Made by a program: the position numbers and the translations under genes. From an uncultured archaeon (GTDB lineage: Archaea; Asgardarchaeota; Lokiarchaeia; Sigyniarchaeales; SOKP01), in contig CAZBPC010000007.1 in assembly GCA_964493715.1 (NCBI GenBank), positions 57,710-76,079 on the forward strand: a stretch of DNA of 18,370 bases, read 5' to 3'. The notes below the pieces were generated by a model. It was not told the DNA's origin. It was given only the letters and a program-made list of their open reading frames with translations, and did no database searches. Within the stretch, counting starts at the first letter, position 1. The number at the start of each line of letters is the position of its first letter. Shown here piece after piece: positions 1,644-16,737 of this stretch.

Positions 1644-1893
1644 ATATTTAAAAACGAGCTTAAATGTTCTTTCTCGCAATTTAATTAGTTAAATTATAAA
1701 AATTTTTTCTGTTCTTTTCATTAAAATTATCATAATAAATTATTTAATCATTAAAATTTAATTTGTAAACCCCATAATTTTTAATCCTTTTTCTACTATT
1801 TTCCATAATAAATCAGCATTTTTTTTTCAATATGAATTAAAATTGCTTATTTGATAATAAAATTGTTAAGAATCGCTAATATCGGCTAATGCG

Positions 1894-1917
1894 ATAAATA
1901 TATAAATATAAATATAT
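1894..1917 (+). promoter_or_regulatory. Candidate TATA-box region for the hdr cluster
   Basis: ATAAATATATAAATATAAATATAT upstream of the hdrA start at 2075. The region is very AT-rich, so specificity is low. Confidence 0.25.
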
Positions 1918-2020
1918 TCAAAGTTAAAATAAAATAAAGTCAATTATAAAAACGTAAGGTATTTCGTAATCGAAAGTTATAAGAATAGGATATAGCTCAA
2001 GAATTTAAAGAGTAAATACT

Positions 2021-2035
2021 AAGTCTATTAGACTT
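2021..2035. repeat. Perfect inverted repeat AAGTCTA-T-TAGACTT, possible operator
   Basis: 7-bp arms are exact reverse complements with a 1-nt centre, 40 nt upstream of the hdrA ATG. Confidence 0.45.
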
Positions 2036-2074
2036 TACAAAATTGTAGAAATAAGAGGTGGATGAATAAGAAAG

Positions 2075-4045
2075 ATGCTGTCTGATAATCAGACCATAAA
2101 TAAAAAAAAAGAGAGTACGAAAAAAATTGGGTATTACGCATGTCAATGAGGTATTAATATCAAAGGGAAAATTAATTGCAATAAACTGGTAGAATACGCT
2201 AAAGGACTTGATGGAGTAGTCATATCGAAGACGCACGCTTTTCTTTGAACCGAAAGTGGGCAAAATGAAATAATTGAAGACATCAAGGCAAAGAAATTAG
2301 ATCGAGTAGTTGCTTCAGCTTGAACTCCAAGAACTCACGAGCCAATTTATCGAGGATCAATATCGGAAACAGAAATGAGTCCTTATTATTTTCAGATGGT
2401 AAACGTGCGAGAACATTGCAGCTGGTGTACTGAAAGTAGTGAAGAAGCTCTTGAGAAAGCAAAAATTCTCGTGAGAAGTGGAATCGAACGCGCAAGGGGA
2501 TTAGAAATAGTTCCTATTAAAACCGTTTCCGTCGAAAAAGCGACATTAGTGATTGGTGGTGGAATTGCTGGAATGAATGCAGCATTAGATCTCGCTAATC
2601 AAGGAATTAAAGTCTACTTGGTTGAAGAGAAAACCACGATTGGAGGAAGGATGGCCCAGCTTGATCGAACATTTCCTACAGATGATTGTAGTATCTGAAT
2701 CTGTGGACCCATAATGTTGGAAGTAAATCGAAACAAAAATATTGAAGTCTTGAGCTTCAGTGAAGTAAAAAGCGTTAATGGTTATGTCGGGAATTATGAA
2801 ATCATAGTTGAGAAAAAACCTCGATTTATAGATACTGAAAAATGTAATGGGTGTGGTGCTTGCACTGAAAATTGCCCCACTTATACGACGAACTTTTTTG
2901 ATGAATTCTTAGGAGCAAGAAAAACAATTGATATCGCATTTGGACAGGCAGTACCATTTTTATATGATATACATCGTGAAACTTGCGTGGAATGTTTTGC
3001 CTGTGTGGAAGCTTGTGAGTTAGACGCTATAGATTTTAGCCAATTAGCCGAAGATATCACTTTTAAAGTAGGTACAATAATAATTGCGACAGGATGGGAT
3101 ATTTATGAACCATTTGGTGAATATGGTTATGGTGAATATGAAAATGTTATCACCCAAGCTCAACTCGAACGAATGCTTGCTCCAAATGGACCTTTAGAAG
3201 GTCACGTGCGAAGAATTTCTGATAATAAAAAACCACAAGAAATAGTGTTTATTCAATGCGTAGGAAGCAGAGAAACTGAACGAACGTATTGTTCGGGAGT
3301 ATGTTGCATGTTAGCCCTTAAAAACGGCAAGCTTCTCAAGGAAGAATTTCCAGATTCGAATATAACCATCTGTTATATAGACATTCGTACGAACGAAAAA
3401 GGTTTTGAAGAATATTACCAACGTGCGAAGAATTCTGATATCAGAATGATTCGAGGAAAAGTAGGAGAAATAACTGAAAATCCCGAAACTAAGGATGTGA
3501 AAGTGCGCGTTTATTCTTCATTAACTGATGAAATCATTAATATAAATGCAGATTTAGTAGTTCTATCAACAGCAGCATTACCAAGTAAAGGAACGAATAA
3601 AATCGCTAAGTTGCTGAATTTAGACCTCGATAGAAATGGTTTTCTTACGGAAAGCCATTTTGGTCTATCACCGCAGGAGACAAAAACAAAAGGGATTTTC
3701 ATTGCAGGATTTGCCCAAGGTCCAAAGGATATAGCCTATTCAGTTTCACAAGCTCGAGCAGCAGCAAGTAAGGTTGCGGAATTAACATCTGCAGGTGAAA
3801 TTGATTTGGAACTAATTGTAGCTGAAGTTGATAAAGAATTTTGCATATCCTGTGGGCGCTGTGAAAAAGAATGTCCAAAAGGAGCAATTAGAATCATTGA
3901 ATCTGAAGGAGCTGTTGTAGATGAGATAAATTGCGACGGTTGTGGAATTTGCGCGACTTGTTGTCCGACACAAGCAATTGATATTCGATATTTCCGAGAT
4001 GATCAATTAATAGCTGAAATTAATGGAATGTTAGAAGGTGGTTAA
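2075..4045 (+). CDS. hdrA: Selenocysteine-containing heterodisulfide reductase subunit A (656 aa; Sec at U25, U58, U83, U208)
   Basis: ATG 2075 is in frame with track ORFs 2375 and 2714. In-frame TGAs at 2147, 2246, 2321 and 2696 give IGYYACQUGINI, HAFLUTESGQ, VVASAUTPRTHEP and TDDCSIUICGP. These match IGVLICHCGINI, NLYSCSSDSQ, FIVASCTPRTHEA and TNDCSLCILAP in the paralogue at 8491. Also present: GGGIAG FAD motif, inserted 2x[4Fe-4S] ferredoxin, QCVGSR...YCSGVCC, GPKDI and a C-terminal ferredoxin. Stop is TAA. Confidence 0.93.
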
Positions 4046-4050
4046 ACGAG

Positions 4051-4494
4051 ATGGAATATAAGTATAATATAATAATGTTTGCTTGCCTAAAATGAGGCTA
4101 TGGAGCTGCTGATTTAGCTGGTGTTTCCCGAATGAAATACACTCCCGCAATAAAGATTATTAAAGTAAGGTGTACTGGAAGAGTGGATGCTAAATATATC
4201 CTTCATTCCATAAAACAAGGCGCTGATGGCGTGATGGTCGTAGGTTGAAGACCAGATGAGTGTCAATATAAGGTCGGGAATTTTACGGCTCAAAGGCATG
4301 TCGATTTTGCTAATCACATCTTAGAAAAAAGAGGTTTTGGTAACCAAAGAGTTAACATGTACTGGTTAAGTAGTGCTGAATCAGAGAAGTTAGTTAAAAG
4401 TGTTGAAGACGCTTTTGAAAAAATCCAACGTTTAGGTCCCAATCCGATAAGTACTCAGGGTTTAGAAAAAAAAGAAGTTGCAACAACCCCATAG
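4051..4494 (+). CDS. mvhD: Selenocysteine-containing MvhD/VhuD-type [2Fe-2S] subunit (147 aa; Sec at U15, U66); absent from the ORF track
   Basis: [46 protein letters not shown]...GADGVMVVGURPDECQY...NMYWLSSAE...LGPNP. TGAs at 4093 and 4246 align with CNWC and TGC of the Cys paralogue at 11598. AGGTGG SD-like motif at 4036-4041. Stop is TAG 4492-4494. Confidence 0.93.
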
Positions 4495-4552
4495 AATGAC
4501 TCCTATAAAAAAATTCTAGTTATAGGATGACTATCCTAGCAAGGATGGGGTT
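4485..4552 (+). promoter_or_regulatory. Eukaryote-like (Lokiarchaeia-type) SECIS element
   Basis: AUGAC (4496-4500), perfect 8-bp stem TCCTATAA (4501-4508)/TTATAGGA (4520-4527), 11-nt loop AAAAATTCTAG, then UGAC (4528-4531). This gives the UGAN/NGAN tandem G.A core. Possible basal helix AACCCCAT (4485-4492)/ATGGGGTT (4545-4552). Lies directly after two multi-UGA genes. Confidence 0.85.
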
Positions 4553-4601
4553 TAGTATTGTTTAATTTGTTTAATTTAAATAAAAAAAGATTTGAAAAAA
4601 T

Positions 4602-6110
4602 ATGGTATCAATAGAAAAGAACAGCATGTTTAGTAATATCCCTCTAGAAGATTTGATGGATGCAACCTATCTTGCTTCCACGAATTTTCAAGTCAGAGCA
4701 TTTTTTGAAGCAAAAAATGAAATTTTGAAGACAGGAAAATATTCAGAAAAAGAATTTTATGAAATTTTAGATGCTCTGGTTGATGCGGAAACCGAAAGAA
4801 AAATTGTTCTCGAAAGACTTCAAGGAAAATATCCGTTATTCCTATCAGAAATAGCAGGTGAAATCACGTTATTTCCCCCCGAAAATGTAATTCGTGATGT
4901 AATCTACTTGAAAGAACAAGGTTATGTAGAGGAACACGTTGAAATAAAGACCAAAATGGTCACGAAAAAGATAAAAGGTGAAGAGAAACAAGTTGAAGTC
5001 AAGGAATATTTTTACCGTTATCAAGCAAAAAAACTTCCCGATGATTTTATGGAAATTCATTTTAAACCTGTATCAATTGTATTTGATGCAGGAGTTTGCT
5101 GTCAATGTGGATGGTGCTCTTCTATATGCCCTGTAAATGCAATTACGGTAGATGCGGATAATTTAGAAATAGATGATGAATCTTGTATGAAATGTGGATT
5201 ATGTTTTAGTGTTTGTCCTCGTTCTTTTTCTATTGACCAAGCTAATGAAGCAATCAAGAAATTAGATAAAGAATTGAAATGGTCAGATAATATTGGAGCT
5301 TATTTCAACTCTTATTCGGGAAGTACTAAAAATGAAGATATAATGAAAGTAAGACAAGATGGAGGCGTAGTAACCACAATCGCCGAATATCTGTTAAAGA
5401 ATAAATTAGTAGACGCAGTAATTGCAGTACAACATTCAAAAGAGCTATGGAAACCTGAACCCGTCATTATCGATACCTTGAAAGATTTATATAAAACGGG
5501 AGGTACAAAATATGCGAATTCTCCATCTTTAAAAATAATAGATCAAGCTAAAAAGTATGATCGGGTGGCTTTTGTCGGAGTTCCTTGCATGATGAAAGCT
5601 CTGGAAAAAGGAACACTATTTCCATGTGGTTTACCCTTTTTTAAAAATATTAAATACAAGATCGGTCTTTTTTGCATGGAATCGTTTCCATACGATGGAA
5701 TTGTAAGGCTAGCAAAAGAGAAATTCAATAAAGACGTTAATGAATTGACAAAAATGAACATCGGGGGAGGTAAATTCATCATTAAAGTAAAATCTGGAGA
5801 ACAGTTAGATGTTCCACTAAATGATGTCAAGAGTTATGCTCGTCATAGTTGTCACTTTTGTGAAGACTTGACCTCGGATTATGCTGACATTTCTGTAGGA
5901 TCGATTGGGTCGCAAGATGGATGGTCTTCTGTAATAACGAGATCGAAAGATGCAGATAAATTATATAATGAAATTGTTAAAGCAGGATTAATTGAATCAC
6001 AGAGTTTGAAAGATGTAAAGCCCGGACAATTTTTAGTTGAGCGAATTGGCGGAACGAAAAGAAAAAATTGTAAACCAATAAATTTGAAAGAGAATCAAGA
6101 TGACCACTAA
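4602..6110 (+). CDS. FrhB/FdhB-family (F420-interacting flavoprotein) with a 2x[4Fe-4S] ferredoxin and an N-terminal ~150-aa helical/winged-helix-like extension
   Basis: CCQCGWCSSICP and CMKCGLCFSVCP ferredoxin motifs. FrhB motifs RQDGGVVT, VAFVGVPC, IGLFCMESF and CHFCEDLTSDYADISVGSIGS. Confidence 0.88.
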   Translation: MVSIEKNSMFSNIPLEDLMDATYLASTNFQVRAFFEAKNEILKTGKYSEKEFYEILDALVDAETERKIVLERLQGKYPLFLSEIAGEITLFPPENVIRDVIYLKEQGYVEEHVEIKTKMVTKKIKGEEKQVEVKEYFYRYQAKKLPDDFMEIHFKPVSIVFDAGVCCQCGWCSSICPVNAITVDADNLEIDDESCMKCGLCFSVCPRSFSIDQANEAIKKLDKELKWSDNIGAYFNSYSGSTKNEDIMKVRQDGGVVTTIAEYLLKNKLVDAVIAVQHSKELWKPEPVIIDTLKDLYKTGGTKYANSPSLKIIDQAKKYDRVAFVGVPCMMKALEKGTLFPCGLPFFKNIKYKIGLFCMESFPYDGIVRLAKEKFNKDVNELTKMNIGGGKFIIKVKSGEQLDVPLNDVKSYARHSCHFCEDLTSDYADISVGSIGSQDGWSSVITRSKDADKLYNEIVKAGLIESQSLKDVKPGQFLVERIGGTKRKNCKPINLKENQDDH

Positions 6111-7225: not shown

Positions 7226-8491
7226 ATAATAGAGTCAAAAAGGGACACAGAACGGAAAAAATTATTTGATGATACCTTAAAATATCTTGGTAAGATTTAT
7301 GATCCAAACTTAAGGGAACTTTTAAAAAAGTGTTATCAATGTGGTCGTTGTTCAGGTGTTTGTCAATTAAGTAAAGTGCAAAAATATACTCCGAGTAAAA
7401 TAATTCAACTTATTTTAGAAGGTTTTGAAGATAAAGTTCTTGATAGTGGTGATTTATGGGATTGTTTAACATGCAATCAATGTCTTAAAGACTGTCCCGA
7501 AGATATTAATTTTGCAGACATTGTCAGAACAGCAAGGTATTTAATGCGACATAGGGACCAATCTGTCGATGAGTATGTTGCTCATAAAGGAATATATACA
7601 ACTCTTTCTGAAATAATGAGTAGACCTTATATAAATCCCGAAAGAAACATGGAGTGGGTCCCAAAAGGTTGTAAAATCTCAGACAAAGGAAACATATTAT
7701 ATTATGTAGGGTGTTTGCCCTTTTTTAACTATGAATTTGAAGGTTTAGATACAATTGCTAAAAGTACCTTGCAAATTATGTGCAAAGTTGAAAATGAGCC
7801 TATAGTTGTTTTATCCGAAGAGACTTGTTGCGGACACGATATCTATTGGGGGCAAGGTAAATTAAAAACGTTTATCAAGCTAGCAAAAAAGAATATAGAC
7901 AAATTTGAAAAAACAGGAATTTCAAAGATTGTGACTGCCTGTGCGGAATGCTATAGAACATTTAAGATTGATTATGCTCAATTATTTGAGGAGTTTGAGT
8001 CGAAATTTGAAGTTAAACATCTCATCGAATATATTTACGATAATTGGAAGGAAGGAACCATTGAATTTGTAAAACCCAATAAATCCGAAGAAATCACGCC
8101 TTTTACTTACCATGATCCATGTAGGTTGAGTAGATTTTTATCCAAGGAGAACGACATTACAGGGATGACTCGGGAAATTTTCAAGGAATTCGAAAAATTA
8201 GGTTATAAATTTAATGAAATGAAGCATAACAAGGAAAACTCATTATGTTGTGGAGTCAATTCCTGGATGAATTGCAATGAAAAATCAAAAGCATTAAGAT
8301 ATACGCGAATGTTAGAGGCAAAAGAAGCTGGAACGATAATGGTTACATCTTGTCCTAAGTGTAACATTCATTTGAGCTGTCTTCAAAATGATTTCGAAGA
8401 TATAGCCTCTATTGAGATATTAGATTTTTCCGAATTTTTAGTTAATCACATTAAAGTTAATAAACCAAGGAAGAAGGAGGAGTCTAAGTAA
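7226..8491 (+). CDS. HdrD-like Fe-S oxidoreductase (HdrC-type 2x[4Fe-4S] domain plus two CCG domains); probable non-canonical ATA start at 7226 or 7229
   Basis: In-frame CYQCGRCSGVC (7331-7363) lies upstream of the track start 7376 and pairs with LWDCLTCNQCLKDCP. CCG domains: YYVGC...CCG...TACAEC and YHDPC...CCG...TSCPKC. GAGGAG at 7214-7219. Stop TAA overlaps the next ATG (TAATG). The exact start is uncertain. Confidence 0.82.
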   Translation: MIESKRDTERKKLFDDTLKYLGKIYDPNLRELLKKCYQCGRCSGVCQLSKVQKYTPSKIIQLILEGFEDKVLDSGDLWDCLTCNQCLKDCPEDINFADIVRTARYLMRHRDQSVDEYVAHKGIYTTLSEIMSRPYINPERNMEWVPKGCKISDKGNILYYVGCLPFFNYEFEGLDTIAKSTLQIMCKVENEPIVVLSEETCCGHDIYWGQGKLKTFIKLAKKNIDKFEKTGISKIVTACAECYRTFKIDYAQLFEEFESKFEVKHLIEYIYDNWKEGTIEFVKPNKSEEITPFTYHDPCRLSRFLSKENDITGMTREIFKEFEKLGYKFNEMKHNKENSLCCGVNSWMNCNEKSKALRYTRMLEAKEAGTIMVTSCPKCNIHLSCLQNDFEDIASIEILDFSEFLVNHIKVNKPRKKEESK

Positions 8492-11400
8492 TGCAAGGAA
8501 GCGTATTAGTAATAGGTGGAGGCATAGCCGGCATCCAAACTAGCCTTGATCTCACAGAATTAGGATTTAAAGTCTATCTCGTTGAGAGGAATCCTTCTAT
8601 TGGAGGTAGAATGGCACAACTTGATAAAACCTTCCCTACAAATGACTGTTCATTATGTATATTGGCTCCCAAGATGGTTGAAGTGTTTAGAAACCCGAAT
8701 ATCGAGCTAATGACGTATCATGAGCTAAAAGCAGTATCTGGGACTCCAGGCGATTTTATAGCAACTATTATTAAGAAACCTCGGTATATTGATGAAACAA
8801 GATGCAAAGGTTGTGGAGATTGTGCTGCGAAATGTCCTAAGATCCAAGTTCCCAATCTCTTTGACATGAATTTAGGAAAAAGAAAGTCTGCTTATATACC
8901 ATTTCCTCAAGCAGTCCCTCCAATTTATCTCATTGATCCTGAAATATGCCTAAAATTAACTAAAGGCGTATGTGGGGTATGTGCTAAGGTATGCCAAGCT
9001 GAGGCAATTAATTTTGAACAAGTAGAACAAGAGATAAAGATAAATGTGGGAGCAATTGTGGTTGCTACGGGATTTGATATGCCTGCTGAAAAATTATCTT
9101 CAAGGTGGGGATATAGATTTGAGAATGTTGTAAGTGCTTTGGAATATGAAAGAATATTATGTGCTTCAGGACCCTTTGGTGGTCACGTGTTAAGACCGGG
9201 TGATCATGAAGAACCTGAAAAAATCGCATTCATTCAGTGCGCAGGTTCAAGAGATCTACACGAAGGAATCCGATATTGTTCTAGCGTGTGTTGCATGTAT
9301 ACCGCTAAAGAAGCCATCATCACTGCAGAACATTCAGAAAAATCAAAATGCTTTGTTTTCAGGCATGACATTCGTGCTTTTGGGAAGAATTTTTATGAAT
9401 TCACGCAAAGAGCACAAAAGGAATATGGTGTAAAATATATTCAGACTAAAATCAGCAAGATAGAAGAAAATCCTGAAACGAAGAATTTGACAATTCACTA
9501 TGAAAATTTAAAAACGGGAGAATTTGATGATTTTGAAGCTAATTTAGTGGTTTTAGCCACTCCATTGGTTCATTCATCCGGAAGTCAAGAGTTATCGGAA
9601 ATATTAGGAATTGAAGTAGATGAGTATAATTTTTTTAGAGAGTTAGATTATTATAACAAATCAAAATCAACAAAAGAAGGGATCTATTTATGTGGTTTTT
9701 GTCAAGGTCCAATGGACATCCCAGAGACCGTTGCAGATTCGAGTGGAGTAGCTGGACAAGTTGCAACTTACTTAAATTCAGTAAAGTTTGAACAAATTAA
9801 AGAAAAGGATATAGAAATCCCCGAATTGGGAATTAAAGATGATGATGAACCGAGAATAGGCGTGTTGATATGTCATTGTGGAATTAATATTGGTAAATAC
9901 GTACACGTTCCTTTATTGGCTGAATACGTGCGAGCTTTACCAAATGTAATTCAATGTGAAGACAATCTTTACTCTTGTTCATCAGATAGCCAAGCAAGAA
10001 TTAAAGAACTCATTATCAATAACAAATTAAATAGATTTATTGTGGCTTCTTGTACCCCAAGAACTCATGAAGCATTATTTCAAGAGACTTGTGTGGAAGC
10101 AGGTTTGAATAAATACTTGTTTGAAATGGTCAACATTCGAGACCAATGTTCCTGGGTTCACATGGACGATGCGGAAGCAGCGACACAAAAAGCTAAAGAT
10201 TTGATAAGAATGGCAGTTGCTAAAGCACGATTATTAAAGCCCCTGAAAGAAGAATTGTTAAAAATCACCCCTACAGCATTAATCATTGGTGGTGGAATCG
10301 CAGGAATGACTGCTGCCTTAAATACAGCCAATCAAGGGTTTAAAACATTCATAGTTGAAAAGGAAACCGTTCTTGGGGGAAATTTAAATTACTTAAACGA
10401 GCTGTACCCATTCGAACAAGATGCTTCGGATTTCCTTAATCGAACCATAGATACAATCGAGAAGAATGAGAACATTCAAACGTTCTTGAATGCTAAAATA
10501 AAGAAAGTCAAGGGATACGTGGGAAACTATGTTGTCTCAGTAGAGGAATCTAATGGAAATGTCCAAGAATTAAGCATTGGAACAATCATCGTTGCCACGG
10601 GAGGCAAAGAATATAAACCCAAAGATCTCTTTCAATACAAAAAGGAGAATAAGAATGTTATAACTCAACTAGAGTTAGAGCAATTATTAAAAGAAAAAGG
10701 GAAATCGTGGCTTGATGATATCAACCGTATCACTACAATTTTATGCGTAAATGCAAGACAAAATGAAGGAATAACCTATTGCTCTAATATATGCTGTGGT
10801 AATTCAATCAAGAATATAGGACTTCTAAAGAAGCTTAAACCGGAACTTGAATTGATTGTCCTTTATAGAGATCTACAAATGGCAAAGAAAAGATATGAAG
10901 ATTATTACCGAGAACGTAGAAAGGATGCAATGTTTTTGCGATATGATTTGGACAACTTGCCGATTGTAAAAAGAAAGAGTAAATCTCCTGAAAAATATGG
11001 AATAAAATATTATGATACGAACTTGCAAGACTTTTTAGAATTTGAAACAGATTTGATCGTATTGTCGACTCCAATGGTTCCATCAGACAATTTGATGGAT
11101 TTAGCTAAAATGTTAAAGGTACCGTTGGATAAAAATGGATTTTTCCTCGAGGCTCATGTTAAATTAAGACCACTCGATTTTGCTACCGAAGGAATATTTC
11201 TATGCGGCTGCGCTCAATGGCCAAAAAATGTCCAAGATACAATATCCCAAGCAAATGGTGCTGCAGGAAGAGCCAGTAGATTTTTAAGTGCTAAAGAAAT
11301 TACCACTTCGGGCATTGTTGCAGAAGTAAATCCAATAAATTGTATAGGTTGCGGAAAATGTGCTAGTGTTTGTGCTTATAATGCCATTGATATTTTAGAT

Positions 11401-11577
11401 TCAATAAAGGAATATGAAGATGTAAGCCTTTTAGTGAAAAAATCGTTCATAAATTCTGCGTTATGCAAGGGATGCGGTACATGTGCAGCGACTTGCCCAA
11501 ACGGAGCGATCTCTATAAAACAATATGATTTTGATCAAATATCTGCAATGATTGAGTCATTTTTATTAGAAACATAA
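8491..11577 (+). CDS. hdrA: Long HdrA-family protein (1028 aa) with two FAD modules and an internally placed HdrA N-terminal-type Fe-S domain; Cys-only
   Basis: GGGIAG at the N-terminus, TNDCSLC, inserted ferredoxin and QCAGSR...CSSVCC. Then RIGVLICHCG...ASCTPRTHE...RDQCSWVH, a second GGGIAG, CSNICC, EAHVKLRP and a C-terminal ferredoxin. AGGAGG at 8475-8480. Confidence 0.92.
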   Translation: MQGSVLVIGGGIAGIQTSLDLTELGFKVYLVERNPSIGGRMAQLDKTFPTNDCSLCILAPKMVEVFRNPNIELMTYHELKAVSGTPGDFIATIIKKPRYIDETRCKGCGDCAAKCPKIQVPNLFDMNLGKRKSAYIPFPQAVPPIYLIDPEICLKLTKGVCGVCAKVCQAEAINFEQVEQEIKINVGAIVVATGFDMPAEKLSSRWGYRFENVVSALEYERILCASGPFGGHVLRPGDHEEPEKIAFIQCAGSRDLHEGIRYCSSVCCMYTAKEAIITAEHSEKSKCFVFRHDIRAFGKNFYEFTQRAQKEYGVKYIQTKISKIEENPETKNLTIHYENLKTGEFDDFEANLVVLATPLVHSSGSQELSEILGIEVDEYNFFRELDYYNKSKSTKEGIYLCGFCQGPMDIPETVADSSGVAGQVATYLNSVKFEQIKEKDIEIPELGIKDDDEPRIGVLICHCGINIGKYVHVPLLAEYVRALPNVIQCEDNLYSCSSDSQARIKELIINNKLNRFIVASCTPRTHEALFQETCVEAGLNKYLFEMVNIRDQCSWVHMDDAEAATQKAKDLIRMAVAKARLLKPLKEELLKITPTALIIGGGIAGMTAALNTANQGFKTFIVEKETVLGGNLNYLNELYPFEQDASDFLNRTIDTIEKNENIQTFLNAKIKKVKGYVGNYVVSVEESNGNVQELSIGTIIVATGGKEYKPKDLFQYKKENKNVITQLELEQLLKEKGKSWLDDINRITTILCVNARQNEGITYCSNICCGNSIKNIGLLKKLKPELELIVLYRDLQMAKKRYEDYYRERRKDAMFLRYDLDNLPIVKRKSKSPEKYGIKYYDTNLQDFLEFETDLIVLSTPMVPSDNLMDLAKMLKVPLDKNGFFLEAHVKLRPLDFATEGIFLCGCAQWPKNVQDTISQANGAAGRASRFLSAKEITTSGIVAEVNPINCIGCGKCASVCAYNAIDILDSIKEYEDVSLLVKKSFINSALCKGCGTCAATCPNGAISIKQYDFDQISAMIESFLLET

Positions 11578-11597
11578 CTATACATTAAGAAGAAATA

Positions 11598-12035
11598 ATG
11601 TCAAAAACTAAATCGAAAGAGAAGTTTCCTGATTTTAACCCAGAAATCTTAGCATTTTGCTGTAATTGGTGTTCTTATGCAGGTGCAGATCTAGCTGGTG
11701 TATCTCGCTTTCAATATCCTCCTAATATTCGAATTGTTAGGGTAATGTGCTCTGGTCGAGTTGATCCTTCTTTTGTTATAAAAGCATTAAAAGACGGAGC
11801 CGATGGGGTTTTAATTACGGGTTGTCACATCGGAGATTGCCACTACATCACTGGAAACGAATATGCTAAGGAAAGGTTTGAAAGGTTGCATGAAATTTTA
11901 ATCAAGCAACTTGGGATAAATCAAAAAAGAGTAAGGTTGGAATGGATAAGTGCTTCGGAAGGAAAGCGGTTCGCAGAGGTAATTACAGAATTCACAAATG
12001 AAATTAAAGAATTAGGACCTCTAAAAGTTCTTTAA
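11598..12035 (+). CDS. mvhD: MvhD-type [2Fe-2S] subunit, Cys-only paralogue
   Basis: [51 protein letters not shown]. Confidence 0.95.
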
Positions 12036-13699: not shown

Positions 13700-13762
13700 C
13701 AATAATTGTCTAAAAATAGTAATGATTTTTAATTAAATGATCAAATCTTTACAAATTTAAAT

Positions 13763-13777
13763 GAAAATATTTATATA
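13763..13777 (+). promoter_or_regulatory. Candidate BRE/TATA for the third hdrA
   Basis: GAAAATA followed by TTTATATA (13770-13777), about 100 nt upstream of ATG 13877. Confidence 0.3.
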
Positions 13778-13876
13778 ATCGCTTATCCTTATTTTTAGAA
13801 TAACATAAAATAACTTAACTGATTTGTAAGGAATCAGTCTATTTTTTAATGAAATTAATTGGGGTATTTTATAATA

Positions 13877-16627
13877 ATGGAAGGTTCTGTTTTAGTAATA
13901 GGCGCTGGCATAGCAGGAATCCAATCTTCACTGGATCTAACTGAACTTGGCTTTAAGGTTTATCTTATCGAAAAAGAAGCTTATATTGGAGGACATATGG
14001 CTCAATTCGACAAATTATTTCCTGCTAACGACTGTAGTTTATGCGTGCTCGCTCCAAAGATGGTTGCGGTGTATAGAAATCCTAATATTTCTCTCTATAC
14101 ATTATCTGAAGTTAAAAAAGTATCTGGGAAAGCTGGAAACTTTAAAATTAGTATCCAGAAGAGTCCTCGATACGTAGATGAAAGCCGATGTAAAGGATGT
14201 GGAGATTGTGCTGCAAAATGTCCTAGAGTGGAAGCCCCGAATCTCTTTGACATGAATTTAGGAAAAAGAAAATCCATTTACATCCCTTTCCCACAAGCAA
14301 CTCCTCCTGTGTATCTTATAGACCCGGAGATTTGTCTTTATCTCAATAGGAATGTGTGTCGGGTATGTGAAAAAGTTTGCCAGGCTGGAGCAATAGATTT
14401 TGGTCAGAAACCAGAGGATATAGAGTTTAATGTTGGTGCAATTGTAATTGCGACCGGGTATGAAATGCTAAGCGAAGAATTAGCTTCGAAATGGGGATAT
14501 CAATACAAAAATGTCGTGAATGCTTTAGAATATGAAAGAATTCTTAGCCCTACTGGACCATTTGGAACCCAAATTTTAAGACCCAGTGATGAAAAAGAAC
14601 CAAAAAGTATCGCATTTATCCAATGTGCTGGATCCAGTTATTTAAATGATAATGTTCCCTATTGCTCTCGAGCTTGTTGCATGTATACAACGAAGGATGC
14701 AGTTTTGACGAAACAATATTCTCAAGACATTCAGATTTCTATATTTAGGCATAATATCAGAGTATTTGGCAAAAATTTTTATGAGTATACCAAGGAAGCT
14801 CAAGTTGATTATGGTATAAACTACTTCAATTCTAACATTAATTCTATTGAAGAAGAACCAGAAACTCATGATATTATCATTAATTTTGATGATTTAAGAA
14901 AGGATGAATATGGAAAGAATTATAGGGCAAATTTAGTAGTTCTCGCAGCTCCATTAGTACCTTCTCGTGGATCTAGAGATTTGGCTGATATTATAGATGT
15001 TAGGCTAGATAATTTTGGATTTTTTCAAGAATCTTCTTATTTTGACAAGTTACTATCGACTAAAGAGGGGGTATATTTATGTGGGTTCTGTCAAGGTCCA
15101 ATGGTCATTTCAGAGACAGTTGCAAATGCGAGTGGAGTTGCATCTCAAATATCTACGTTTTTGAATTCTGCTAGATACACGCAAGTAGTTGACAAAGAAA
15201 TTGAGACCAAATCTGAAGAAGAAATAATAAGGATTGTTCCTCGAACATTAATAATTGGCGGTGGCATATCTGGAATAACAGCAGCGTTAAATATAAGTAA
15301 TCAGGGATTTGAGACAATTCTAGTTGAAAAAAAAGATAAATTGGGTGGAAATTTGAATCATCTCAACTTGATCTATCCGACTCAAATAAAAGCATCAAAT
15401 TTCTTAGAGGATAAGTTAAACCAATTATCTAACAAAGAAAATGTTAAAGTCTTTCTCAATTCTTATATAGAGGAGTTGGAAGGGTCAATAGGAAATTACC
15501 ATGTAAAAATTGCCAATCAAGAAAATAAATATAATTTTGAAGTAGGTACTATTATTGTAGCAACTGGAAGTAAAGAATTTAAACCTCAGGGTCTTTTTCA
15601 ATATAATGAGAGAAATAGAAACGTTTTAACACAATTAGAATTAGAAGAGCGATTAAAACGAGGGGATAAAGATTGGCTTAAAAATATTGAACATATCACC
15701 ACAATAATGTGTGTGAATGCCCGACAAAAGGGTGGATTTTCCTATTGTTCTAATATATGTTGTAGTAATACTATTAAAAACATTAGCATATTAAAAAAAT
15801 TGAAACCACAATTAAAAGTTGTTGTTCTGTTTAGAGAATTACATATGGCTAAAAAGGAATTTGAAGAATACGTAAGCAAGAGAAAAAAAATTGCTGAGTA
15901 TTTAAAATATGATTTAGAAAATCTACCACATCTAACTAAGATTAATGATAGTCCAGAGAGATATGAGATAAACGTTCAAAACATCGTGGATCAAAAGGAA
16001 ACGATTAGGTTTGAAACCGATCTCGTTATATTGTCCACGCCAATGATCCCTCCCGAAGATGTGCACGATCTTGCTGAAAAAATAAAAGTCCCCATCGATG
16101 AAAATGGATTTTTCATAGAAGCTCATAAAAAACTCAGACCCTTGGATTTGACAACTTATGGGATTTTCATTTGTGGGTGTGCTCAATGGCCTAAAAATGT
16201 TCAGGATTCCATTTTAGAAGCTAATGCAGCAGCTGGGAGAGCAAGTAGATTTTTAAGCATTAAAGAAATATCGACTACCAAATTAGAGATGTTGTCAGTT
16301 TTCCTCTCTATAGAATGTTTTTTCAAGGATATGAAAGTAAATATTGAAAGATGTAATGGTTGTGGTCAATGTGCTGAAGTTTGTCAATTTAAAGCGATTA
16401 CGCTCGAGGATTTAAAACAAGAATACGAAGATGTGAGTATTTCCACGAAAAAAGCACATATTAATCCCGCTTTATGTAAAGGGTGCGGTAAATGTTCAGC
16501 AACATGTCGCTTAAAAGCAATAGAACCCCTCCATTATGATTTTAAGCAACTAACCTCTATAGTTGAACCATACTTTCTTGATAAAAGCAAGAGGAAAGAA
16601 ACCGAAGAATACATGTATGCTGAATAG
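13877..16627 (+). CDS. hdrA: Third HdrA-family protein (916 aa), close paralogue of the 8491 gene lacking the central Fe-S domain
   Basis: MEGSVLVIGAGIAG matches MQGSVLVIGGGIAG, so ATG 13877 is preferred. Contains ANDCSLC, a ferredoxin insert, CSRACC, GGGISG, CSNICC and a C-terminal ferredoxin. A 32-nt block is identical at 8854-8885 and 14240-14271. Confidence 0.9.
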   Translation: MEGSVLVIGAGIAGIQSSLDLTELGFKVYLIEKEAYIGGHMAQFDKLFPANDCSLCVLAPKMVAVYRNPNISLYTLSEVKKVSGKAGNFKISIQKSPRYVDESRCKGCGDCAAKCPRVEAPNLFDMNLGKRKSIYIPFPQATPPVYLIDPEICLYLNRNVCRVCEKVCQAGAIDFGQKPEDIEFNVGAIVIATGYEMLSEELASKWGYQYKNVVNALEYERILSPTGPFGTQILRPSDEKEPKSIAFIQCAGSSYLNDNVPYCSRACCMYTTKDAVLTKQYSQDIQISIFRHNIRVFGKNFYEYTKEAQVDYGINYFNSNINSIEEEPETHDIIINFDDLRKDEYGKNYRANLVVLAAPLVPSRGSRDLADIIDVRLDNFGFFQESSYFDKLLSTKEGVYLCGFCQGPMVISETVANASGVASQISTFLNSARYTQVVDKEIETKSEEEIIRIVPRTLIIGGGISGITAALNISNQGFETILVEKKDKLGGNLNHLNLIYPTQIKASNFLEDKLNQLSNKENVKVFLNSYIEELEGSIGNYHVKIANQENKYNFEVGTIIVATGSKEFKPQGLFQYNERNRNVLTQLELEERLKRGDKDWLKNIEHITTIMCVNARQKGGFSYCSNICCSNTIKNISILKKLKPQLKVVVLFRELHMAKKEFEEYVSKRKKIAEYLKYDLENLPHLTKINDSPERYEINVQNIVDQKETIRFETDLVILSTPMIPPEDVHDLAEKIKVPIDENGFFIEAHKKLRPLDLTTYGIFICGCAQWPKNVQDSILEANAAAGRASRFLSIKEISTTKLEMLSVFLSIECFFKDMKVNIERCNGCGQCAEVCQFKAITLEDLKQEYEDVSISTKKAHINPALCKGCGKCSATCRLKAIEPLHYDFKQLTSIVEPYFLDKSKRKETEEYMYAE

Positions 16628-16660
16628 AATTCTACAAAATTTAAATAATAAATTTTTCTA

Positions 16661-16668
16661 TTTTTTTT
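16661..16668 (+). terminator. Candidate oligo-T terminator
   Basis: T8 run after the hdrA stop, between convergent genes. Confidence 0.4.
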
Positions 16669-16737
16669 ACTTCCCCTGGAAAATGGACAAAAGAAATGAA
16701 CAAGTTTGATTAGGAGTACAAGTTATTTAAGAAATTT

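Follow-up and report, generated by a model that had tools for sequence, protein, structure and literature searches.

One eukaryote-like SECIS element behind an Asgard hdrA-mvhD gene pair probably serves six UGA codons in two cistrons

We analysed a stretch of 18.4 kb of DNA (the window; contig C7:57710-76079) from an archaeal genome of 3.68 Mb with 31% G+C; the nearest public relatives of the window are labelled Promethearchaeota (Loki-type Asgard). The window contains the gene pair hdrA-mvhD with six in-frame UGA codons and, directly behind mvhD, a hairpin that, judged by its letters and their conservation, is a genuine eukaryote-like selenocysteine insertion sequence (SECIS). This one element very probably serves all six UGA codons, in hdrA as well as in mvhD, across a cistron boundary and over a distance of up to 2.35 kb. 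A SECIS shared by hdrA and mvhD is already known from a publication of 2016 and a survey of Asgard genomes of 2024, and the locus described here is one more well-supported example, no discovery. Two observations go beyond the main texts of the key papers: a three-armed junction formed by a kink-turn and a side hairpin, and loci with two SECIS elements in other Asgard families. The features that carry the argument are listed below; Sec denotes selenocysteine, Cys cysteine, aa amino acids and SD Shine-Dalgarno.

2055..2060, plus strand: SD-like GAGGTG ahead of hdrA, read from the sequence; the block is conserved in the alignment of orthologue upstream regions.
2075..4045, plus strand: hdrA (heterodisulfide reductase subunit A), 656 aa when translated with TGA as U; stop TAA at 4043-4045.
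2147..2149, plus strand: UGA, HdrA Sec25; TGA in 14/14 orthologues; aligns with a Cys of solved HdrA.
2246..2248, plus strand: UGA, HdrA Sec58; TGA in 9/14 and TGT (Cys) in 5/14 orthologues; aligns with a Cys of solved HdrA.
2321..2323, plus strand: UGA, HdrA Sec83; TGA in 14/14 orthologues; aligns with a Cys of solved HdrA.
2696..2698, plus strand: UGA, HdrA Sec208; TGA in 14/14 orthologues; aligns with a non-standard X of PDB 9sfi_A.
4036-4041, plus strand: SD-like AGGTGG of mvhD, read from the sequence within the 3' end of hdrA.
4051..4494, plus strand: mvhD/vhuD (FlpD family), 147 aa, ATG at 4051, stop TAG; by translation, with Pfam PF02662 at E 8e-44 and matches to solved VhuD/MvhD chains.
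4093..4095, plus strand: UGA, MvhD Sec15; present in 14/14 orthologues, in an otherwise invariant Cys column of the MvhD alignment; aligns with an X of 9sfi_K.
4246..4248, plus strand: UGA, MvhD Sec66; present in 14/14 orthologues, likewise in an otherwise invariant Cys column; aligns with an X of 9sfi_K.
4496..4531, plus strand: SECIS core, comprising AUGA, helix II, an A-rich apical loop of 11 nucleotides (nt) and UGA-C.

The core reads, unbroken, ATGACTCCTATAAAAAAATTCTAGTTATAGGATGAC. It is composed of ATGA (4496-4499), C (4500), a perfect helix II of 8 bp (4501-4508 paired with 4520-4527), an apical loop of 11 nt (4509-4519) with AAAAA at its start and AG at its end, and TGAC (4528-4531). 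The TAG stop of mvhD lies at 4492-4494 and the element begins 2 nt later; the distance from the first UGA of hdrA to the AUGA of the element is 2349 nt. The first-pass annotation of this DNA had described an AUGAC, an 8-bp perfect stem, a loop led by AAAAA and a UGAC, 2 nt past the mvhD stop, and its coordinates proved exact. The gap of 5 nt that it gave between hdrA and mvhD agrees with a TAA ending at 4045 and an ATG at 4051, and its six UGAs in two cistrons were recovered, four in hdrA and two in mvhD, by translation with TGA as Sec.

The rarity of the element was evaluated with a strict descriptor (AUGA, 1 nt, 8 bp, a loop of 9-14 nt beginning AAA, 1 nt, GA). Six matches were found in the 3.68-Mb genome, all six with an 11-nt loop, compared with 0-2 matches (mean 1.0) in 12 genomes simulated by a first-order Markov model and 1 match in the reversed genome. 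Five of the six lie directly 3' of open reading frames (ORFs) with an in-frame UGA, namely two mvhD genes, a VhuU-like gene and two others. The sixth, on contig C8, is taken as a chance match because its loop does not end in G and no convincing UGA gene was seen.

Conservation was followed within the genome and beyond it. The genome holds four Sec-type hdrA-mvhD pairs (contigs C7, C59, C39 and C74), and an element stands directly behind mvhD in all four; their stems are unrelated in sequence, one element (C39) being an AUGA_AA variant and one having a mismatch. By eye, no element was found after the seven Cys-type mvhD genes of the same genome. A search for related loci with a single protein yielded 50 loci, 14 of which (L008-L021) are Asgard orthologues with MvhD identities of 66-91%. 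All 14 have Sec15 and Sec66 in MvhD and, where hdrA is complete, 3-4 conserved UGAs in it; the distance between the two genes ranges from -11 to +22 nt, and a single element lies at, over or just past the mvhD stop. The loop is 12 nt long in L013, and AA replaces GA in L008. An alignment of 18 sequences shows no change in AUGA, GA and the A-rich loop, but covariation in the stem: 98.6% of the helix II cells are paired, 6/8 pairs have changed on both sides, and 0/500 shuffles scored as high. A strain variant on a DNA contig from another sample (4522 A>G) converts an A-U pair into G.U and keeps the pairing. Conservation of the hairpin behind Sec-containing orthologues, on which its assignment in the first-pass annotation hinged, is thereby borne out.

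We read the UGA codons of hdrA and mvhD as Sec codons because they occupy conserved columns, because UGA and UGU exchange at Sec58, and because of the alignment with the X residues of the solved complex 9sfi, which presumably stand for Sec. HdrA has Fer4 and FAD domains (Pfam) and matched solved HdrA chains at E 5.5e-199; Sec208 occupies the canonical Sec position of HdrA. Of the four HdrA Sec positions, three fall within the N-terminal domain (window 2147-2323, residues 23-83), where each aligns with a conserved Cys of solved HdrA; a C-x-U-G motif in this domain resembles the C-x-x-U-G of MvhD. The genome also contains a tRNA-Sec gene, SepSecS (374 bits), a SelB-like GTPase on the same contig (231 bits, slightly below the bacterial selB cut-off) and two selD genes with one UGA apiece, and the same element type follows other UGA-containing genes, e.g. 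the VhuU-like gene.

These data bear on the idea that the hairpin is a mere terminator or stability hairpin and that the genes with internal UGAs are either pseudogenes or read by other means. A bacterial-type terminator scan does flag 4531-4548 with its T-rich tail, but its 3 sites do not significantly exceed the 1.6 expected. Such a hairpin would also have to be reconciled with UGA positions kept in 14/14 orthologues in otherwise open frames, with the Sec/Cys exchange, with an invariant AUGA, GA and A-rich loop on a covarying stem, with the recurrence of the element behind other UGA genes such as the VhuU-like one, and with a full Sec machinery in the genome. We regard this explanation as barely credible.

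Next we consider whether a second element could serve hdrA. A fixed-geometry scan matched the window at 4496 only. A covariance model (R1), built from the orthologue alignment minus two mis-gapped elements and run with filters off, gave 66 bits at 4494-4533 and 10.3 bits (E 1.2) for the runner-up. R1 exceeded 50 bits exactly once in 16/17 scanned loci; the element of L001 was missed by R1 and found by the pattern scan. The R1 matches at 1551-1574 (10.3 bits) and 3444-3476 (9.7 bits) were rejected, as neither has a stem. A relaxed descriptor gave 5 window matches against 8.5 expected by chance; those at 3795-3835, 11890-11946, 13722-13764 and, on the minus strand, 16638-16682 were rejected as being at chance level, and at 3795-3835, the only relaxed match within hdrA, the GUGA core is kept in 4/14 orthologues and the pairs are lost. 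No conserved fold emerged from 127 sliding windows along the hdrA alignment (best consensus -4.2 kcal/mol, structure conservation index 0.33), and the 220 nt upstream of hdrA gave no consensus fold, the conserved parts being GAGGTG and AT-rich boxes only. Synonymous conservation was not raised after Sec58, Sec83 and Sec208 (z 0.4, -1.7 and -1.3, respectively); it was mildly raised after Sec25 (z 1.6) and strongly so (z 5.3) over the first hdrA codons, a gapped N-terminal region. Within the limits of the pattern scan, R1 and the relaxed descriptor over the whole window, the absence of a second element claimed in the first-pass annotation therefore stands, and the scans, fold windows and upstream alignment disclosed no separate SECIS in or upstream of hdrA.

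The stop codon of hdrA is TAA or TAG in 4/4 loci of the own genome, in 14/14 orthologous loci and in 36/36 distant loci with a separate hdrA, counts that amount to no formal test since the loci are related; TGA terminates 16.7% of the long ORFs in the own genome. That hdrA never ends in UGA counts for sharing. The distant loci belong to a set of 40 more loci with a Sec-type hdrA in other Asgard families, which were picked from a 151-genome search and are not a random sample. In 13/40 the spacer between hdrA and mvhD is at least 109 nt long, and in all 13 a SECIS-like element stands 13-20 nt after the hdrA stop and another after mvhD:

Two-SECIS loci: L058, L065, L070, L072, L078, L079, L081, L082, L088, L089, L090, L095 and L096.

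Ten of these 13 hdrA-proximal elements are canonical by scan; the other three, one with an AUGG core and two with 5-bp stems, were judged by eye. Behind the hdrA element the spacer of the two-SECIS loci is AT-rich with an SD-like motif, as if the transcripts were separate. A short spacer is found in 21/40 loci, with no element between the genes. Three loci (L084, L085 and L086) are in-frame hdrA-mvhD fusions with no stop between the two parts and one SECIS-like element after the fused ORF. The fused ORFs carry the UGAs of both parts; the read-through count is 6-7 and may include UGAs past the ORF end. In two loci hdrA occurs without mvhD and the element follows directly after hdrA, and one locus is cut by the contig end. 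A further observation concerns L075 (genome G141, contig C12), where hdrA has 5 UGAs and no adjacent mvhD; an element 26 nt on is homologous to the own C39 SECIS, but its core reads AUGC instead of AUGA and its stem is followed by AA. Thus hdrA carries its own signal exactly where the spacer gives room; with a collapsed spacer, such as that of the window, the mvhD element stands alone.

It might still be argued that the element is the SECIS of mvhD only and that the UGAs of hdrA are recoded by local structures, by an element in the 5' untranslated region (UTR) or by a trans-acting factor. An hdrA-specific element does exist in the 13 distant loci, R1 is poorly sensitive to divergent elements, and the raised synonymous conservation after Sec25 and over the first codons could be taken in the same sense. 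Yet neither hdrA nor its upstream region showed a conserved fold, the relaxed matches are at chance level and the one in hdrA is not conserved, an element of hdrA's own was seen only together with a long spacer, and in the three natural fusions all UGAs lie in one ORF with one terminal element. We consider this alternative very unlikely. The recoding of two cistrons by a single element, as proposed in the first-pass annotation, is supported by this comparison and by the same reading in the main text of Mariotti et al. 2016.

Several points nevertheless weigh against our interpretation of the element and of its reach. The first position of helix II beside the core is C.U, so that here 8 Watson-Crick pairs and a mismatch stand for what was published as a "9-bp stem". 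The Rfam SECIS models gave no match at E up to 10 when the whole window was searched with cmscan, which returned 4 matches to other families. The label "eukaryote-type SECIS" of the first-pass annotation is thus appropriate for the core motifs AUGA/GA and the loop adenines, and fails for the stem, which is shorter than in eukaryotes, and for the Rfam models. R1 is over-fitted to the orthologue group: of elements held out from it, the VhuU element of C12 scored 12.8 bits, the mvhD element of C59 was not listed and that of L013 scored 52.9 bits, and the R1 search of the own genome, which scored 150 of 12,491 candidates, is no inventory. Because of this over-fitting, the silence of R1 elsewhere in the window is weak evidence alone. 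A differently built hdrA signal could also have escaped the scans. One metatranscriptome run yielded six short contigs at a depth of about 2, all in hdrA (including 2084-2234, 2259-2409 and 3402-3786); two of them cross Sec25 and Sec83. All six may be carry-over of DNA, and the lack of cover on mvhD and the element counts neither way. Finally, according to the available text of Peiter et al. 2025, a lokiarchaeal SECIS was not functional in Methanococcus maripaludis.

Taken as a SECIS shared by both genes, the element would lie at the 3' end of one message for hdrA and mvhD. It would most likely recruit the Sec-specific elongation factor with Sec-tRNA(Sec), either directly or via a kink-turn-binding protein, and ribosomes arriving at any of the six UGAs could then insert selenocysteine. 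Its reach would extend to the two mvhD UGAs, 250-400 nt upstream, and to the four hdrA UGAs, 1.8-2.35 kb upstream across the cistron boundary. The joint transcription of the two genes, the effect on the upstream one and the identity of the binding partner are inferences. Two features follow the element:

4575..4582, plus strand: TTTAAATA, candidate archaeal TATA box, read from the sequence 20 nt before the next ATG.
4602..6110, plus strand: frhB/fdhB-like gene without UGA (Pfam PF04432 and PF04422); synteny is conserved, and the orthologue downstream sequences also reach an ATG.

We lean towards a message of two cistrons that carries the element in its 3' UTR, because an SD-like motif precedes both hdrA and mvhD, while none was seen before the ATG of the frhB-like gene at 4602, which has TTTAAATA 20 nt upstream instead. 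Similar AT-rich boxes are also present in the orthologues, and DNA contigs from two other samples span 1700-4744. The element could also serve both genes from an intercistronic position in a longer mRNA that continues into the frhB-like genes (4602 onward). The conserved hdrA-mvhD-frhB-like synteny, a spacer of just 70 nt and the lack of any run of at least 5 T after the element would fit such an mRNA, and the two-SECIS loci, which place an element between hdrA and mvhD, would suggest that an internal position is tolerated if the genes there are co-transcribed. The candidate TATA box, together with the lack of a visible SD-like motif, would rather fit a separate promoter and a leaderless or short-leader mRNA, and the U-rich tract after the closing helix may likewise speak against a longer message. 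The intercistronic arrangement appears possible, if rather unlikely.

The sequences flanking the core suggest a larger structure, with the following parts:

4486..4494, plus strand: 5' strand of the closing helix, 4486-4492 (plus G4494 pairing with C4531), overlapping the last mvhD codons and the stop.
4535..4544, plus strand: side hairpin, stem CCU/AGG and loop AGCA, which can be lengthened to 4532-4547; it lies downstream of GA and ahead of the 3' strand of the closing helix.
4545..4551, plus strand: 3' strand of the closing helix, AUGGGGU, pairing with 4486-4492 and followed by a U-rich tract.

In 15 orthologous sequences evaluated by RNAalifold and pair counts, the closing helix has 6 pairs with 90% of cells paired, 4 of them changed on both sides. 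The position -2 before AUGA forms a Watson-Crick pair with the position +1 after GA in 42/42 elements, compared with a shuffled mean of 31.4 (G-C in 35, U-A in 4, A-U in 2 and C-G in 1). In a kink-turn with a bulge of 3 nt, a pair at this place would be expected to close the canonical helix, and the window agrees with the kink-turn pattern at the level of sequence: G4494-C4531, the bulge A-A-U, G4498.A4530 and A4499.G4529. Among 25 non-redundant elements, matched flanks fold at -11.1 kcal/mol and mismatched ones at -7.6 kcal/mol, with 0/20,000 permutations as good. A small hairpin begins 1-8 nt after GA in 25/25 elements, compared with 6.6 +/- 2.1 (maximum 13) with shuffled flanks, and its loop contains the dinucleotide GC in 21/25. 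With helix II fixed, 20/25 elements fold into a three-armed junction, compared with a mean of 7.4 with shuffled flanks. A role of the side hairpin as a plain terminator was considered and is unlikely, the same hairpin being found after hdrA-proximal elements ahead of mvhD.

With considerable confidence, the element can be regarded as a kink-turn RNA whose helix of 8-9 bp is capped by an A-rich loop of 11 nt, i.e. as a type-I Asgard ("loki") SECIS. The three arms may be the closing helix, which runs over the stop codon; the helix of AUGA/GA, capped by the A-rich loop; and a small side hairpin that is obligatory and usually has a GC(A/G) loop. This side hairpin might offer the SECIS-binding factor a second site of recognition. 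We give about even chances to the joint reading that the functional Asgard SECIS is three-armed and that the shared hdrA-mvhD element is the end state of spacer collapse. Asgard families with a junction behind each gene, or with fused genes, may then be living intermediates.

The locus agrees closely with what the main text of Mariotti et al. 2016 (PMC4989117) describes for Lokiarchaeota, where a lokiSECIS is common to HdrA-VhuD tandems, with one per pair behind VhuD, up to six UGAs over about 2 kb, and an hdrA stop that is never UGA; archaeal SECIS tools are reported to find nothing in Loki genes. The remark of the first-pass annotation that similar elements are known from Lokiarchaeota was thus correct. 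In the lokiSECIS, AUGA stands directly before the stem, as at 4496-4499; the stem of 9 bp with an 11-nt loop corresponds here to 8 Watson-Crick pairs plus C.U and 11 nt; the first five loop nt are mostly A and the last is a G, usually after A, as in AAAAA...AG; GA or AA follows directly after the stem, here within U-G-A at 4528-4530; and the element lies near the end of the UGA gene, one per HdrA-VhuD pair, in agreement with the single window match. Nothing essential differs here. The closing helix and the side hairpin are not mentioned in that main text.

Huang et al. 2024 (PMC11227280), whose main text covers 227 Sec-using Asgard genomes, describes a type I eSECIS-like structure with a core GA_[G/A]A, an upper stem of 7-15 bp and an apical loop of 8-20 nt, which the window element fits, as well as AUGA_AA variants, one of which is found on the own contig C39. 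Lower stems and an internal loop are mentioned there in general terms only. The same text has hdrA and frhD as neighbours that share the structure, with intergenic regions that are always very short, whereas 13/40 of the distant loci fetched here have a spacer of at least 109 nt and a second element. Neither the side hairpin nor an hdrA locus that has an element to itself is described in the main texts of Mariotti 2016 and Huang 2024, and a literature search for SECIS with "three-way junction" returned no Asgard paper by title. The accessible part of a 2026 review adds nothing further on sharing.

Compared with eukaryotic SECIS form 1 (Rfam SECIS_1), the element has in common the AUGA/GA kink-turn quartet, the unpaired loop adenines, the 3' position and action at a distance; it differs in its shorter helix II (8-9 bp), the missing Rfam match and the three-armed lower part. 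No SBP2 is known in Asgard genomes according to the main text of Huang et al. 2024 (PMC11227280). The VhuD SECIS of Methanococcales and Methanopyrus, as far as described in the main text of PMC4989117, matches the core-flanking G-C pair and the closing helix of the window, but has the methanogen GAA_A bulge, and hdrA has its own SECIS there. The k-junction, in the available account of Wang et al. 2014 (PMC4005666), combines a kink-turn with a third helix on the non-bulged strand, as found here; this is a resemblance only, and in the Asgard element 1-4 bp usually separate the kink-turn from the branch point.

Further selenoprotein candidates were noted in the genome. An ORF of about 154 aa on contig C4 (L004:208-669, minus strand) has two adjacent in-frame UGAs (..HAD-U-U-ADN..), and a paralogue lies near 22205 on contig C48 (..GC-U-U-EK..); a canonical lokiSECIS is found 7-8 nt or less 3' of each. 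The U-U ORF matched no Pfam family at E up to 0.1, save for a 13-bit match at chance level, and the pair may represent an undescribed or poorly described selenoprotein family. On contig C14 (L007), an ORF of 60-odd residues with a hydrophobic stretch and GGG-U-GC ends about 6 nt before a lokiSECIS at L007:2304, and may encode a small membrane selenoprotein.

Elsewhere in the window, a Cys-only HdrA-like fusion of 1028 aa followed by a Cys-type mvhD (11598-12035) occupies 8491-12035, and a Cys-only HdrA-like protein of 922 aa is encoded at 13859-16627; no SECIS-like element was found after these Cys-only HdrA-like and mvhD genes. Also present in the window are a gene of the URO-D family, one with a CCG domain (HdrB-like) and two that are frhB-like. 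The protein translated from the ORF at 1-1608 is of surface type and has a CarboxypepD_reg domain; the single UGA of this ORF (region 1597-1608) was rejected as a Sec codon, lying three codons before TAA/TAG, and is read as an ordinary stop.

The recoding of six UGAs in two cistrons over 2.35 kb by one 3' element would be unusual, and it bears on the origin of the eukaryotic SECIS. The conserved three-armed junction and the side hairpin offer RNA targets with which the Asgard SECIS-binding factor may be found, and hdrA-mvhD loci with two elements, with one element or with fused genes make up a natural series in which reach across the cistron boundary could be tested.

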